A stretch of DNA of 64,000 nt. It comes from Candidatus Aminicenantes bacterium (GTDB lineage: Bacteria > Acidobacteriota > Aminicenantia > Aminicenantales > JAFGBC01). Positions 47,219 to 59,821 of this stretch are shown one piece after another (the first letter of the stretch is position 1; each line of letters begins with the position of its first letter). The notes beneath the pieces are model-generated. The model was not told the DNA's origin. It ran no database searches and saw only the letters and a list, made by a program, of their open reading frames with translations. Where the stretch lies: the NCBI GenBank assembly GCA_963702005.1, contig OY969696.1, positions 3,168,001 through 3,232,000 of the forward strand, in the 5' to 3' direction. A program made the translations under genes and the position numbers.

Positions 47219-48129
47219 CAGTCGACTCCGACGGCTTTGGCGAAGACGTCCTCGAGGGACGTCTGGCTCTTCAGGAATTGGCGGACCTGGAGGCGCTCCT
47301 CGGCCGCGGCCTGGAAGATGACCCTCCGGTCGAGGCCGGGCGGCATGTAGACCTTGAGGATCATGTCCTCGGTCTCCTCGACCTTGCAACCGAACCCTCG
47401 GATACGGTCCAAGAAGCGGGCCGGTTCGCCCTTGACCTTGAGCTCGAACAGCCGGAAGCTCGTTTCGCGGAGGTTGGCCAGCTCGCCCTGGGCCGCGACC
47501 CGGCCCTTGTTGAGGATGACGACGAAGGCGCAGATGGCCTCGATGTCGGACAGGATGTGGGACGAGATCAGGACCTGAATGTCTTTCTTGGAGGAAATGT
47601 CCAGGATGAGCTCCAGAATCTCCTTCCGGCCCTGGGGGTCGAGGTTGCTGGTCGGCTCGTCGAGGAAAAGAAGCTTCGGATCGTGGACGATGGCTTGGGC
47701 AAGCTTGAGGCGCTGCTTCATGCCGGACGAGTAGGTCTCAAGCTGGCGGTAGCGGGACTCCCCCAGCCCGACGTAGAAGAGGACGTCGTGGGCCCTCTTC
47801 ATGGCCTCCTGGCGGGGCATGCCCGAGAGCTCCCCGAAATAGGCCGTGAAGGTGACGGCGTCCATGCCCGGGATGAAGCAGTCGTTTTCGGGCATGTAGC
47901 CGACCCGGCGCCGGATGAGGGGCTGTTGGGTCCGGATGTCGTAATTGAGAACCCGGCCCTCGCCCCGGTCGGGCCGGAGGAAGCCGAGCATGATCCGGAG
48001 GAGCGTGCTCTTGCCGGCGCCGTTCGGACCGAGCAGGCCGACGGCCCCTTCTTCGAGACGGACGTCGACGCCGTCAAGGGCCCGGACCTTGCCGTAGCTG
48101 AATCGAATATCTTTGAGCTCGATGCTCAT
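47218..48129 (-). CDS. ABC transporter ATP-binding protein
   Basis: GPNGAGKS, YSSGMKQR and FLDEPT. Confidence 0.94.
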   Translation of the reverse strand: MSIELKDIRFSYGKVRALDGVDVRLEEGAVGLLGPNGAGKSTLLRIMLGFLRPDRGEGRVLNYDIRTQQPLIRRRVGYMPENDCFIPGMDAVTFTAYFGELSGMPRQEAMKRAHDVLFYVGLGESRYRQLETYSSGMKQRLKLAQAIVHDPKLLFLDEPTSNLDPQGRKEILELILDISSKKDIQVLISSHILSDIEAICAFVVILNKGRVAAQGELANLRETSFRLFELKVKGEPARFLDRIRGFGCKVEETEDMILKVYMPPGLDRRVIFQAAAEERLQVRQFLKSQTSLEDVFAKAVGVD

Positions 48130-48174
48130 GCTATAACCGTCTCTAATAAACTACGGGAATCGGGCCGGTAAAGT

Positions 48175-49779
48175 TCAAGGAAGGACCTTGGTCCCCGCTC
48201 CCTGGACGAGGGCCCGGAAGGTCTTCTCGACCCGGTCCCAGTTCTCCTCCCGATCCAGGGCCCAGAACCGGCCGATGACGGTCACCAGGTCGCCCAGGCC
48301 GATCCGGCGGCATTCCTCCTCGACCTTCTCGACATAGAAAGCGCCGCTCTCGGGCTTTTCGCCGCGGCGGCCGATCAGGGCATGGATGTAAATGCGCTTC
48401 ATCCCCTGTTCGCGGGCCATCCGGAGCAGCGCGAACAAGTGGCGGAGCGTGCCGTGCGAGCTGTAGAACGAAACGATCCCCAGCAGGTGGAGGGCCGCGT
48501 CGCGCCGGCGGGCGCCTTCCATGGCCCACAGGAACGCTTCGTTCTTGAAGAAAGATCCGTCCTCGATGGACTTGTCGATCTTGACCCGGTCGAGGAGGAT
48601 GCGGCGGCCGGCGCCGATATGGAGGTGGCCCGCCTCGGAATTCCCGACCGTGCCGGCCGGCATCCCGACGGCTTCCCCGAACGATTCGAGCAGGGCGTGG
48701 GGGAAACGGGACCAGAGCCGGTCGAAGTTCGGCGTCCGGGCTTCGGCTATCAGGTTCCCCCGCCGATCTTCGCGCATCCCCCAGCCGTCCATGATCAGGA
48801 GGAGGACGCGTTTGGGGGAGGCGCCCGAAGGACTGGCCGCATCCGGAAGGATCATGGTGCGCCCTGTCATCTCGGCCGCGGGGTCAATTCCGACGAGACC
48901 GAGGACGGTCGGGGCGATGTCGGCGAGCTCGCCCCGCTCCCGCGTCATGATCCGTTCGGGCTCGGGGACGGCGAAATCGCAGAGGATGAAAGGGACGGGA
49001 TTCTTGGTGTGGCCCGTGTTGACGGCGCCGTCCGGGTAGAGCCATTCCTCGACCGTGCCGTGGTCCGAGGTGACGATGAGAGTCAGGCCGGCGGCGCGGG
49101 CCGCGGCCTCGATCTCGCCCAGCGCCGAATCCACAGCCTCGACGGCCCTGAGGACGGCGGCTTTGTCCTCGATGTGGCCGATGACATCGACATTGGCCAT
49201 GTTGGCGATGATGACCCGATAGGCCTGGTCATGGATCTTGGCCAGGACGGCCTCGACGACGTCCCGAACGCTCATTTCAGGCTTCTCGGCATAATTGGAG
49301 ACGCCCTGCGGCGACGGGACGACGACCCTCTCCTCGCCGGCGAAAACTTCGTCGCTCTTGCCGTTCAGGAAGTGGCCGACGTGGATGGCCTTCTCCGACT
49401 CCGAAACTTTGACCAGGCGGAGGCCGGCGCCCGTTACGACCTCGGTCAGGGTGTTCTTGACCCTCCCTTCGGGCGGATAGGCGACTTTAACGGCCAGGCG
49501 CGGCGCGTACTCGATCATGGTCGCGAAATCGAGCTCAGGCCTGGGATGGACGGGAAAATGGCCGAACGCCGGGTCGGTCAGGGCTTCGGTCAGCTCGACC
49601 TCGCGCTCCCCGCGGATATCGTAGAAGATGACCGCATCGCCGGCGCGGAAACGGCCGATCGGCCGGCCCGTTTCGTCGCACTTAACGATGGGTTCGAGGG
49701 CTTCGTCCTCCTGGCCGGCCGCATAGGCGGCTCGGATGGCCGGGGCGAGGGAACGATACTTGATTCCGCTATTGTCCAT
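48175..49779 (-). CDS. gpmI: Circularly permuted 2,3-bisphosphoglycerate-independent phosphoglycerate mutase homologue
   Basis: The canonical C-terminal motifs (ESEK..H, ANVDVIGH, SDHG, GHT..PVP, DIAPT, EMTG) precede the canonical N-terminal motifs (LLIMDGWG, GNSEAGH, GRFWALDR) in one ORF. Confidence 0.88.
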   Translation of the reverse strand: MDNSGIKYRSLAPAIRAAYAAGQEDEALEPIVKCDETGRPIGRFRAGDAVIFYDIRGEREVELTEALTDPAFGHFPVHPRPELDFATMIEYAPRLAVKVAYPPEGRVKNTLTEVVTGAGLRLVKVSESEKAIHVGHFLNGKSDEVFAGEERVVVPSPQGVSNYAEKPEMSVRDVVEAVLAKIHDQAYRVIIANMANVDVIGHIEDKAAVLRAVEAVDSALGEIEAAARAAGLTLIVTSDHGTVEEWLYPDGAVNTGHTKNPVPFILCDFAVPEPERIMTRERGELADIAPTVLGLVGIDPAAEMTGRTMILPDAASPSGASPKRVLLLIMDGWGMREDRRGNLIAEARTPNFDRLWSRFPHALLESFGEAVGMPAGTVGNSEAGHLHIGAGRRILLDRVKIDKSIEDGSFFKNEAFLWAMEGARRRDAALHLLGIVSFYSSHGTLRHLFALLRMAREQGMKRIYIHALIGRRGEKPESGAFYVEKVEEECRRIGLGDLVTVIGRFWALDREENWDRVEKTFRALVQGAGTKVLP

Positions 49780-49813
49780 GGGAACCTTCAAGCCTGGCGA
49801 AAATCGGTCTATT

Positions 49814-49842
49814 AATATATGAGCCCGGCCGTCTGAAGTCAA
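49814..49842 (-). promoter_or_regulatory. Putative sigma70 promoter whose -35 is the end of a repeat element
   Basis: TTGACT (49842-49837)-17-TATATT (49819-49814). Confidence 0.55.
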
Positions 49843-50038
49843 ATCATCGACACCCATACTAAGCCGTTTCCGGCTTAGTATGAGTGCTGCAAGGCTGCTC
49901 CCCGGCCGAAGCTCCACGGACTAATGCTCATTGGAGCGCCAGTACTCATGAACCGTTTCCGGTTCATGAGTACTGCAAGGCTGGGCTCCGATTTTTAGCC
50001 CCGCTTTCAGAGCGGGGTAGCGTCGGCGAACGGGTCAA
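49838..50038 (-). mobile_element. Non-autonomous IS200/IS605-like miniature element carrying two nested hairpin modules
   Basis: Shares both ends (plus strand GTCAAATCATCGA... and ...CGGCGAACGGGTCAA) with the elements at 59632-59821; CCCCGC-tttcaga-GCGGGG hairpin. Confidence 0.7.
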
Positions 50039-50100
50039 CTCGGAGTGACCGCCTCCCCCCGTTCTGTTATAATTTATTCATTATTACCAAAGGAGGCGCC

Positions 50101-50997
50101 ATGAAACCAAAAATCGCGGTCGCGGTCCTGAGCGGAATCATCTTGGTCACTGCGGGGGCCATCGGAATCCTCCAAGGAGGATCGCCCTCCCTCCAACAAG
50201 AGAAGGTCCCCCTCGTCAAATTCGCCGGGGTCCGGTCCTCGGCTTATGGCATCAAGCCCTTTCCCGAGCCCCAGGAATGGATCAAGGCCATCTCGACCAT
50301 GGGCGGCTATTTCCCGGGATCGACGCCGTGCGCCGTCTGGATCGTCGGCCATCTCAGCCAGCGCCGGAACTGCAAGCTCGATTTCCCCTCGGAGGGAAAG
50401 AGCTATCCCAACGTCGAATTCCTCGACTTCGAGAAGCATGAGCGCTTCCTGAGCGAGTTCGACAAGGCCGGCATCAAGATCTTCCTCCAGGTCGAGCCCG
50501 CCAACGCCGACATGAAAACGCTCATCGACCTCGTCCTGGGCCGCTACAAGAGCCATTCCTGCGTCATCGGCTTCGGGGTCGATGTCGAATGGAACAAGGA
50601 GGCCGATTTCCCGGAAAGAGGCGAGAAGGTCAGCGACGACGTGGCCCGGCAATGGGAAGCCTGGGTCAAGTCTCACAATCCCAGCTACCGGCTTTTCATC
50701 AAGCATTGGGATCAGCTCTGGATGCCGCCGACCTACCGGGGCGACCTCGTCTTCGTGGACGACAGCCAGATCTTCAAGGGCTTCGACGAGATGGCCGCGG
50801 AGTTCGAGGCCTGGGGGAAGTCCTTCGCGTCGAATACGGTCATGTTCCAGATCGGCTACAACTCGGACAAGCCCTGGTGGCAGAAGATTCCCGACGCGCC
50901 CAAGACGATGGGAGAGGCGATCGCGCGCCGGATCTCCCAGGAGTGCGGGATCATCTGGGTCGATTTCAGCCTGCGCGACGTCCTCCCTCTGAAGTAG
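50101..50997 (+). CDS. Exported hypothetical protein, possible TIM-barrel glycoside hydrolase-like
   Basis: AAAGGAGG RBS; signal peptide; GFGVDVEW (DxE) motif. Confidence 0.75.
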   Translation: MKPKIAVAVLSGIILVTAGAIGILQGGSPSLQQEKVPLVKFAGVRSSAYGIKPFPEPQEWIKAISTMGGYFPGSTPCAVWIVGHLSQRRNCKLDFPSEGKSYPNVEFLDFEKHERFLSEFDKAGIKIFLQVEPANADMKTLIDLVLGRYKSHSCVIGFGVDVEWNKEADFPERGEKVSDDVARQWEAWVKSHNPSYRLFIKHWDQLWMPPTYRGDLVFVDDSQIFKGFDEMAAEFEAWGKSFASNTVMFQIGYNSDKPWWQKIPDAPKTMGEAIARRISQECGIIWVDFSLRDVLPLK

Positions 50998-51031
50998 GAA
51001 CGGGACGATGCCGTTTCGTCAGGATGTTCGA

Positions 51032-52144
51032 ATGAGGGCCGTTCGCGCCCTCTTCCTCTTTCTGCTCGTCGGCGCAATCATCGGCGGTACGGCGGCCGAA
51101 GCGCGCCCGACCGGGAGCCCGGACCTTATGATCGGGGTCAAGATCTATGAACGCGCGGGGGACTTCCCCGAGCTCTTCCGGGACTGGCGTTCGCTCGGGA
51201 TCAACACGGCCTTCGTCAGCGCGGCCCTGGCCTCGAACCCCGAATTCAGGGGACTGGCCAGGACGAACGGGATCGCCTTGTTCATCATCCTGCCCACCTT
51301 CCAGAACCCCGAGGCTTTGAAAGAAAGACCCGACCAGGCGGCGATCACCTCCGAAGGGAAACCCGCCCGCGAGGAATGGGTCGAGTTCGTCTGCCCGTCG
51401 CGAGAGGATTATCGGACGCGCCACGTTGAATACGTCAAAGGCCTGGTCCGCGATTGCGACCCGGAAGGCATCAGCCTCGACTTCATCCGCTATTTCGTCT
51501 TCTGGGAGAAGGTCTATCCGGACCGAAGCCCCGGCTCTCTGCCCCAAACCTGCTTCTGCCCCGTCTGCCTCGAGCGGTTTCAGAAAGAAACGGGCATCCG
51601 GATTCCCGGGGATCTTGCCGGAACGGTCCGCCAAGCAGAATGGATTTTAAGCCGCCATCTCCGGGAATGGACGGAATGGAAGTGCGGGATCGTTGCCTCG
51701 CTGGTGGAGACCTTGGCCGGCGAAGCGAGGCGGATCAAGCCGGGGATCAAAATCAACCTCCATGCGGTTCCCTGGAGGCGGCGGGATTTTGACGGCGCCC
51801 TCCGGACTATCGCGGCCCAGGACCTGGCCCGGATCGGCCGATCGGTCGACTATATCTCGCCCATGTGCTACCACCACATGGTCCTCCGGACGCCGGACTG
51901 GGTCCATTCGGTCGTCGAGGATTTCGCGGGCGAGGTCCGAGTGCCGGTCATCCCCAGCATCCAAGTCGGCGAAGCTTATATCGATAAGCCTTTGCTTCCG
52001 GAGGAATTCGAGGCGGCTCTCGCCGAAGCCCTGAAACCGCCCTCGCGCGGGGTCGTCTTCTGGAACTGGGATGCCCTGGCCCGGTCTCCCGAAAAAAGGG
52101 AGATCGTCAGACGATTCGGAACTCCCGCGAAGTCGCCTCGATAG
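51032..52144 (+). CDS. Exported putative glycoside hydrolase (GHL10/DUF187-like TIM barrel)
   Basis: FVCPS, GISLDFIRY, CFCPVC..RF, QD and DYISPMCYH. Start could be 51008. Confidence 0.75.
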   Translation: MRAVRALFLFLLVGAIIGGTAAEARPTGSPDLMIGVKIYERAGDFPELFRDWRSLGINTAFVSAALASNPEFRGLARTNGIALFIILPTFQNPEALKERPDQAAITSEGKPAREEWVEFVCPSREDYRTRHVEYVKGLVRDCDPEGISLDFIRYFVFWEKVYPDRSPGSLPQTCFCPVCLERFQKETGIRIPGDLAGTVRQAEWILSRHLREWTEWKCGIVASLVETLAGEARRIKPGIKINLHAVPWRRRDFDGALRTIAAQDLARIGRSVDYISPMCYHHMVLRTPDWVHSVVEDFAGEVRVPVIPSIQVGEAYIDKPLLPEEFEAALAEALKPPSRGVVFWNWDALARSPEKREIVRRFGTPAKSPR

Positions 52145-59743: not shown

Positions 59744-59821
59744 CCCCTCGACACCCATACTAAGCCGTTTCCGGCTTAGTATGAGTACTGCAAGGCTGGG
59801 TAGCGTCGGCGAACGGGTCAA
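59739..59821 (-). mobile_element. Tandem second miniature element containing only the nested hairpin module
   Basis: Shares TTGAC 59739-59743 with its neighbour; 59748-59798 matches 49847-49897 at 50 of 51 nt; same CGGCGAACGGGTCAA end. Confidence 0.7.

Follow-up and report, generated by a model that had tools for sequence, protein, structure and literature searches.

A natural circular permutation of the iPGM fold in Candidatus Aminicenantes and other anaerobic bacteria

Organization of the permuted gene

The stretch of DNA analyzed here (the window) comprises 64,000 nucleotides of a Candidatus Aminicenantes genome (assembly GCA_963702005.1, contig OY969696.1, positions 3,168,001 to 3,232,000). 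Its minus strand carries a gene at 48175..49779 that encodes an intact, naturally circularly permuted member of the cofactor-independent phosphoglycerate mutase (iPGM) fold. iPGM belongs to textbook glycolysis and serves as a target for drugs against parasites and bacteria. A preliminary description made from the letters of the stretch had given the frame at these coordinates, which hold for a product of 534 amino acids read from ATG; it had named no strand, which is minus. The gene and its parts are listed below, with canonical residue numbers mapped through a phmmer alignment to the Geobacillus enzyme (1EJJ); the limits of the transferase and phosphatase domains are approximate and are those we take from the 1EJJ literature.

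48175..49779, minus strand: permuted iPGM homolog, coding sequence of 534 amino acids plus stop; frame open up to GTG 49917, with ATG 49779 as the likely start
49468..49767, minus strand: transferase domain, second half (residues 5-104; canonical ~210-310), placed by the 1EJJ alignment; Arg56 is canonical Arg261 and Arg59 is Arg264
48847..49467, minus strand: phosphatase domain, C-terminal part (residues 105-311; canonical ~311-510), with Lys130 (canonical Lys336) and the metal ligands
48814..48846, minus strand: linker of 11 residues (312-322) connecting the canonical C-terminus to the canonical N-terminus
48595..48813, minus strand: phosphatase domain, N-terminal part (residues 323-395; canonical ~4-76); Asp331 is Asp12, the nucleophile Ser381 is Ser62 and His385 is His66
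48625-48645, minus strand: GNSEAGH motif
48187..48594, minus strand: transferase domain, first half (residues 396-531; canonical ~77-212); His442 is His123, Arg472 is Arg153, Arg504 is Arg185 and Arg510 is Arg191

In a phmmer search against PDB chains, 11 distinct sequences were matched, every one of them an iPGM, and the best match (1EJJ, E 7.4e-120) fell into two stretches. Numbered on a longer, 580-residue reading of the frame that is discussed below, query residues 367-576 align without gaps to 1EJJ 2-211 (209.9 bits) and residues 51-357 to 1EJJ 210-510 (196.0 bits); in the 534-residue product these are residues 321-530 and 5-311. The canonical C-terminal three-fifths come first and the canonical N-terminal two-fifths last, each half being ~38% identical to canonical iPGM. 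Instead of the usual colinear order of phosphatase N-part, transferase and phosphatase C-part, the chain is rotated at canonical residue ~210/211, and its new termini overlap on canonical residues 210-211. The preliminary description had read the frame as opening in the canonical middle and closing with the canonical N-terminal half, with a short linker at about 48814, a break near residue 210 within the transferase domain and two termini resembling the same canonical segment. The alignment agrees on every one of these points, and the predicted structure agrees on the position of the break. Duplication followed by trimming, the origin proposed there, would fit the two-residue overlap of the termini; no tandem intermediate was found among 150 listed cluster representatives (see below), and no search aimed at longer proteins was made.

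Comparison with canonical GpmI, which the same description had proposed as a check, gave an alignment that is not colinear, and the two Pfam profiles named there were each split into two stretches. These were Metalloenzyme (PF01676; 190.6 bits, cut-off 24.3), spanning residues 107-345 in the 580-residue numbering, and iPGM_N (PF06415; 174.7 bits, cut-off 27), the parts of which stand in swapped order. A profile search of the genome placed iPGM_N positions 132-216 upstream of 1-131, with both parts in a single frame. The iPGM equivalog TIGR01307 was matched with 456.1 bits as the sum of two stretches (cut-off 330.65); the stricter NF003897 was not reached (376 bits against a cut-off of 862).

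That the gene is an assembly chimera or a decaying pseudogene, as the preliminary description had considered, is hardly credible. Nothing was found in favor of either, and the frame is open over 534 codons. All 120 listed homologs (62-97% identity), which come from many assemblies, share the junction and are colinear with the window protein over 96-100% of the query; together with the E-values this excludes chance. Contigs from two other studies bridge the linker with substitutions only, no insertions or deletions being reported: one of 1396 nt (X1) spans 48100-49404 and one of 1873 nt (X2), with 57 differences, spans 48100-49842. Catalytic residues are invariant, and the 80 genome loci listed below are all colinear with a permuted query. 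Misassembly is ruled out by the colinear homologs and genome loci and by the bridging contigs, so the two checks suggested for it, sequence support across the linker and homologs in the same order, both spoke for a real junction. The linker itself varies in length and sequence among homologs (alignment columns ~337-350).

Predicted fold

An AlphaFold2 (AF2) model built on an alignment of 123 permuted sequences reached a mean pLDDT of 92.8 and a pTM of 0.84, a confident iPGM fold in the permuted chain; a structure prediction had been proposed as a check in the preliminary description. Confidence was low only at residues 1-6, at linker residues 317-319 (pLDDT <50) and in the block 471-480 (pLDDT 69). 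In a Foldseek search of PDB, all 22 matches at E<=0.001 were iPGM entries, so that model and search agree on the two-domain iPGM fold. Each alignment covered ~235-316 columns, about half the chain, with TM scores of 0.36-0.49; the alignments are partial because a sequential aligner meets a permuted chain. Among the matches listed (16 rows), every solved structure has the canonical chain order. A homolog (P0011) in the Atlas belongs with iPGM-like clusters only.

In one published account of iPGMs, the phosphatase domain is joined through two hinge peptides to the transferase domain (PMC5382265). In the permuted chain the 11-residue linker between the old termini makes the phosphatase domain contiguous and nests it within a split transferase domain, the inverse of the canonical arrangement in which the transferase lies inside the phosphatase domain. 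Both inter-domain hinges are retained.

Distribution and origin of the permuted form

A search of 1.84 billion cluster representatives listed 150 proteins, which were then classified by chain order. Canonical order was found in 125, and 14 were full-length permuted clusters with <50% mutual identity; the remainder were 6 fragments, 4 of which cross the junction colinearly, and 5 others. One of the 14 permuted clusters is represented by a protein of 5027 amino acids (P0250), in which a complete permuted iPGM unit occupies residues 3853-4375.

GTDB was scanned, with one genome per species, using a motif of the non-Aminicenantes permuted type derived from 7 sequences, and at least 80 loci were found. 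All 80 loci listed are colinear with a permuted query (P0126; 52-80% identity, mostly over ~500 residues). They come from Anaerolineae, other Chloroflexota and Clostridia, and cultured strains such as Levilinea saccharolytica KIBI-1 and Butyricicoccus pullicaecorum ET57 are among the carriers. NCBI labels close relatives of the window protein 'Candidatus Aminicenantes'. With relatives labeled Aminicenantes, Anaerolineae and Clostridia, the permuted family spans at least three phyla, and the swapped form is conserved in many anaerobic bacteria. Among 121 genomes sampled from the window genome's own class, 30 carried the permuted and 19 the canonical order; the corresponding numbers for 151 Anaerolineae genomes were 28 and 11. 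Two copies deviate from the usual layout. In one (G078:C115:76405-78051) the permuted halves, still in a single open frame, are 93 nt apart, compared with the usual ~24, a spacing that points to a longer linker. In the other (G054:C2:182932-184044) only residues 80-216 and 295-532 match, in a frame of 451 amino acids, and this copy may be truncated or decaying.

For phylogenetic analysis the permuted proteins were put into canonical order by script before alignment. A FastTree phylogeny (158 rows) contained a large permuted clade of 23 rows (support 99), which holds the window gene's group, P0140 and 8 clusters of the Anaerolineae/Clostridia type, and a small clade (P0131, P0136 and P0141; support 98) nested among canonical iPGMs. 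After removal of junction and terminal columns, IQ-TREE (59 rows) kept the large clade (SH-aLRT 99) and again placed the small ones within the canonical proteins. Forcing all permuted rows together cost 49.6 lnL, and a single origin was not rejected by the AU test (p 0.081; -fast searches, LG+G4). The small permuted lineage is genuine: four sources yielded 5 colinear relatives of P0141 (75-85% identity), on contigs that reach 512 kb. The next neighbors of this group are canonical, and the nearest relatives of P0131 are canonical iPGMs of Geobacter and Clostridia. The break lies within ~5 residues of the same site in all permuted proteins compared. At least two origins at the same loop are favored by these trees, but not proven.

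Catalytic residues and substrate pocket

The counterparts of canonical Asp12, Ser62, His66, His123, Arg185, Arg191, Arg261, Arg264, Lys336, Asp403, His407, Asp444, His445 and His462 were invariant in 123 permuted sequences. The last five of these are the metal ligands Asp198, His202, Asp239, His240 and His257 of the window protein; together with the invariant Ser381 and Asp331 they complete the nucleophile and two-metal ligand set of iPGM. Of the substrate residues (His123, Arg153, Asp154, Arg185, Arg191, Arg261, Arg264 and Lys336), seven of eight are kept and Asp154 is replaced. We take the roles of Asp154, the other substrate residues, the nucleophile and the ligands to be those given in the Geobacillus iPGM structure papers (1EJJ/1O98). 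The core of the alkaline-phosphatase superfamily is likewise present (PF01676, 190.6 bits; PF01663, 28.6 bits; ligands invariant). The protein is very probably an active phosphoserine-type metallo-phosphomutase, an activity that we infer. By the iPGM mechanism, phosphate would pass from the substrate to Ser381 (canonical Ser62) on the two-metal centre and then be returned to a neighboring hydroxyl; phosphoglycerate or a near relative among the phospho-hydroxy-acids would serve as the substrate.

The pocket was compared at positions at least 85% conserved in 132 canonical representatives, which gave 22 signature positions. Asp154 is present in 97% and Val122 in 92% of the canonical representatives. 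Throughout the large permuted clade Val122 is replaced by Ser (23/23), and Asp154 by Gly in the window gene's group (14/14) and by Ser in 6 of the 9 other members. Met189, Asn259, Asp263, Gly409 and Asn447 are also changed in this clade. In the window gene's group Asp151 has become Gly and Gly152 Arg, so that the altered loop (residues 469-479 of the window protein) reads Gly, Arg, Gly at canonical Asp151, Gly152 and Asp154. At none of the 22 signature positions does the small permuted lineage (P0131, P0136, P0141) depart from the canonical residue, so permutation in itself does not account for the pocket change.

An altered pocket could also mean that the protein, as a member of the alkaline-phosphatase superfamily, has lost mutase action and serves as a phosphatase or phosphotransferase for some other phosphorylated metabolite. 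Several homologs are named 'alkaline phosphatase family protein' by NCBI, weak Pfam matches to Phosphodiest (28.6 bits) and Sulfatase (16.8 bits, below cut-off) were obtained, and HAD phosphatases and a kinase adjoin the gene in other phyla. However, the two weak matches cover only the shared metal-site core, and the whole transferase domain is conserved, including all the substrate-holding arginines, which is hard to explain for a plain hydrolase. We consider this explanation improbable.

Gene neighborhoods in Anaerolineae and Clostridia

Neighborhoods of the 80 Anaerolineae/Clostridia loci listed were examined with greedy ORFs of at least 90 amino acids, blastp clusters and Pfam/NCBIfam searches on representatives; the permuted gene itself was recovered in 74. 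HAD-type hydrolases (one to four in tandem) were found in 64 of the 80 loci and a protein of the PRK/uridine-kinase family in 48; 41 loci have a LacI regulator in divergent orientation, and 23 a UxaE-like epimerase. Directly downstream in 42 loci lies a paralog of the ApgM-type phosphoglycerate mutase (NF003160), 49% identical to the ApgM of the window genome. Representative clusters are:

L007:2394-9226: example cluster of the Anaerolineae/Clostridia type
L010:1262-9240: example cluster of the same type
L054:126-5787: example cluster of the same type

Genes for a UxaE-like epimerase, an aldo-keto reductase or a xylose-isomerase-like TIM barrel frequently lie close by across this set (L006-L085), and the N-terminal half of the PRK-family kinase has no family assignment. 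No setting of the gap-pgk-tpi-eno type was found around the permuted gene at the loci examined. By its gene content the cluster resembles an operon for the breakdown of a phosphorylated sugar derivative rather than one for glycolysis.

Other phosphoglycerate mutases in the same genomes

The window genome, a single contig of 4.31 Mb, has an enolase and a single ApgM-type gene that passes the NF003160 cut-off (553 bits, 468 required); genome searches gave no match to a histidine-phosphatase-type phosphoglycerate mutase (dPGM) and no second iPGM. Within its class, ApgM was detected in 101 and dPGM in 2 of 121 genomes. ApgM was present in all 30 genomes with the permuted gene, compared with 3 of the 19 with canonical iPGM, and in 67 of the 71 without a two-part iPGM (one genome with a single partial iPGM-like match, G109, is counted here). 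Anaerolineae gave a similar distribution: NF003160 was found in 121 of 151 genomes, and the 30 without it comprised 11 with canonical iPGM, 17 with dPGM and 2 in which none was found. All 28 permuted-bearing Anaerolineae genomes have it (two of these matches are partial, at contig ends), as against none of the 11 canonical-iPGM and 2 of the 19 dPGM genomes. Over both classes (272 genomes), ApgM accompanies the permuted gene in 58 of 58 genomes and canonical iPGM in 3 of 30. ApgM, canonical iPGM and dPGM replace each other, and the permuted enzyme, always additional in the sampled genomes, is not a stand-in for dPGM or ApgM. Butyricicoccus (G001) has canonical iPGM, ApgM and the permuted gene.

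In the 151 Anaerolineae genomes the NF003160-type ApgM (121), dPGM (19) and canonical iPGM (11) are almost perfectly mutually exclusive, two types being found only in G004 and G181 and none only in G154 and G187. This is a clean case of analogous gene displacement, and the mutual exclusion implies that the bacterial PRK04135-type ApgM is the housekeeping phosphoglycerate mutase there. ApgM appears to have this role in the lineages studied here.

Based on these data, we lean towards seeing the permuted protein as an accessory enzyme whose pocket has been modified, rather than as the housekeeping phosphoglycerate mutase of glycolysis. The strongest evidence on its role is the phyletic pattern: it is probably accessory because all 58 carriers also have ApgM, as against 3 of 30 canonical-iPGM genomes. 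The housekeeping interconversion of 3- and 2-phosphoglycerate would then be catalyzed by the ApgM-type mutase, whose gene lies elsewhere in the genome. The preliminary description had called the protein a variant of a core glycolytic enzyme; this stands for the fold but, given the phyletic patterns, probably not for the role.

Several observations weigh against an accessory role. All recognized catalytic and substrate residues are kept except Asp154, and a conserved Glu474, one position after the lost aspartate, may replace it. The TIGR01307 score is above cut-off (456 against 331 bits). In the window genome the neighbors, genes of an ABC-2 transporter, are uninformative on function, and a search of this genome with the PRK-like kinase of the Anaerolineae operon as query gave no match. 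Genomes within a class are related and the counts are not independent trials, so that the figure of 58 of 58 overstates the independent support. E. coli has two phosphoglycerate mutases, GpmA and GpmM; since organisms can carry two real enzymes of this kind, co-occurrence does not exclude ordinary mutase activity.

It is accordingly possible, though we think it less likely, that the permuted protein is a fully ordinary mutase of 3- and 2-phosphoglycerate, a redundant or condition-specific isozyme whose changes are neutral or compensate for the chain topology. The invariant catalytic set, the equivalog score, the confident fold prediction and the position of Glu474 next to the lost Asp154 all agree with such an isozyme, as does the lack of a dPGM or canonical iPGM match in the window genome. 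The small lineage, canonical at all 22 signature positions, belongs here too, as permutation alone needs no pocket change. On the other hand, the permuted gene is never the sole phosphoglycerate mutase candidate in the 272 genomes, whereas canonical iPGM and dPGM do replace ApgM. In addition, Asp154 and Val122 are changed throughout the large clade, and the neighborhoods are not glycolytic.

A more specific and tentative proposal goes beyond the accessory role. The large clade may represent a new phosphomutase that acts with the NF003160-type ApgM in a pathway, so far undescribed, that handles a phosphorylated sugar acid or polyol, in a fold permuted independently at least twice at the ~210 loop. 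The joint pathway is supported by the co-occurrence with ApgM in the sampled genomes and, in many Anaerolineae, by the adjacent ApgM, one to four HAD hydrolases, PRK-family kinase and LacI regulator.

Gene start, upstream region and adjacent genes

The ORF list for the window gives the longer reading of the permuted gene as 48175..49917 on the minus strand, 580 amino acids from GTG. The 534-residue product is likely because homologs of ~535 amino acids have the same start, GAAGG is present 6 nt before ATG 49779, and a promoter-like site (49842-49814) falls within the longer frame; the start at GTG 49917 was rejected on these grounds in favor of ATG 49779. The features of the upstream region and the related third repeat are:

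49814..49842, minus strand: promoter-like site, TTGACT, 17-nt spacer, TATATT; 10/12 consensus matches, ending ~35 nt upstream of the ATG
49842-49899, minus strand: hairpin repeat, first copy
49935-49985, minus strand: hairpin repeat, second copy
59781-59797: hairpin repeat, third copy

Two promoter-like sites were counted in the region, compared with a mean of 0.3 after shuffling; they are putative and are consensus matches only. No terminator-like site was found between the permuted gene and an ABC ATPase gene 45 nt downstream, and an Rfam scan of 49700-50150 returned only sub-threshold chance matches. Among RNA data sets, none was listed with the gene.

In the hairpin repeat, which is ~56 nt long, the 5' arm is conserved, the stem is perfect and the loop is GAAA. 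Three copies are present in the window, where 0.02 would be expected by chance, and one of them abuts the promoter-like site. The repeat is polymorphic just upstream of the permuted gene: in a related strain (runs X2 and X3) 9 different letters stand in place of the segment 49842-49899. The repeat has a depth of 150-1100x in metagenome contigs, versus ~5-10x for the flanking gene. No Rfam family was matched in the scan of 49700-50150. The repeat looks like a small mobile or REP-like element.

Downstream of the window gene and its relatives, the ABC ATPase is syntenic in 18 of 20 loci and the ABC-2 permease in 15 of 20. A functional link to this transporter was rejected despite the synteny, as the phyletic patterns are uncoupled: all 23 genomes of family f2 have the transporter and 2 of them the permuted gene, and all 3 genomes of family f11 have the permuted gene and none the transporter. 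On the other side, divergent from the permuted gene, two adjacent plus-strand ORFs (50101-50997 and 51008-52144) encode 298 and 378 amino acids. Neither gave a Pfam or NCBIfam match, and both have an N-terminal hydrophobic stretch that by eye resembles a signal peptide or membrane anchor.

Relation to known enzymes and significance

The permuted protein resembles canonical iPGM (GpmI/GpmM; TIGR01307; PDB 1EJJ, 1O98, 2IFY, 4MY4) in both domains, the Ser nucleophile, the two-metal ligands and seven of eight substrate residues. It differs in its rotated chain with inverted nesting, in the changes at Asp154, Val122, Asn259, Asp263 and other positions, and in not replacing other phosphoglycerate mutases in the sampled genomes. 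With ApgM (NF003160/TIGR00306), its constant companion in those genomes and its direct neighbor in many Anaerolineae, it has the PF01676 core in common. However, the window protein scores 33.7 bits against the TIGR00306 cut-off of 320, which places it outside that family, and the domain inserted in ApgM is PF10143 rather than iPGM_N. The phosphopentomutase DeoB (NF003766) is another mutase of the alkaline-phosphatase superfamily, matched with 35.6 bits over the metal-site core; this score is far below the cut-off of 256, and DeoB, whose substrates are pentose phosphates, has no iPGM transferase domain.

Natural circular permutation is known in enzymes, one account giving the eukaryotic versus bacterial glutathione synthetases as an example (PMC2876114). 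As in that unrelated family, a homologous fold occurs here in rotated order and may mislead sequence-based annotation. The iPGM case differs in that a domain-in-domain insertion has been inverted, perhaps more than once and each time at the same loop. No description of a permuted iPGM was found in the full-text literature, where subscription journals and supplements were not covered, in line with the preliminary description, whose author knew of none; the form seems to be undescribed in print.

The existence of a natural and widespread permuted clade means that a domain-in-domain architecture can be inverted without loss of the fold. Annotation of its members is inconsistent, 'iPGM' at JGI and 'alkaline phosphatase family protein' at NCBI, so the phosphoglycerate mutase step may be misassigned where the metabolism of Aminicenantes, Anaerolineae and gut Clostridia is reconstructed. 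The cultured carriers Levilinea saccharolytica and Butyricicoccus pullicaecorum make the function testable, and the permuted enzyme may represent an unrecognized phosphomutase activity and pathway.

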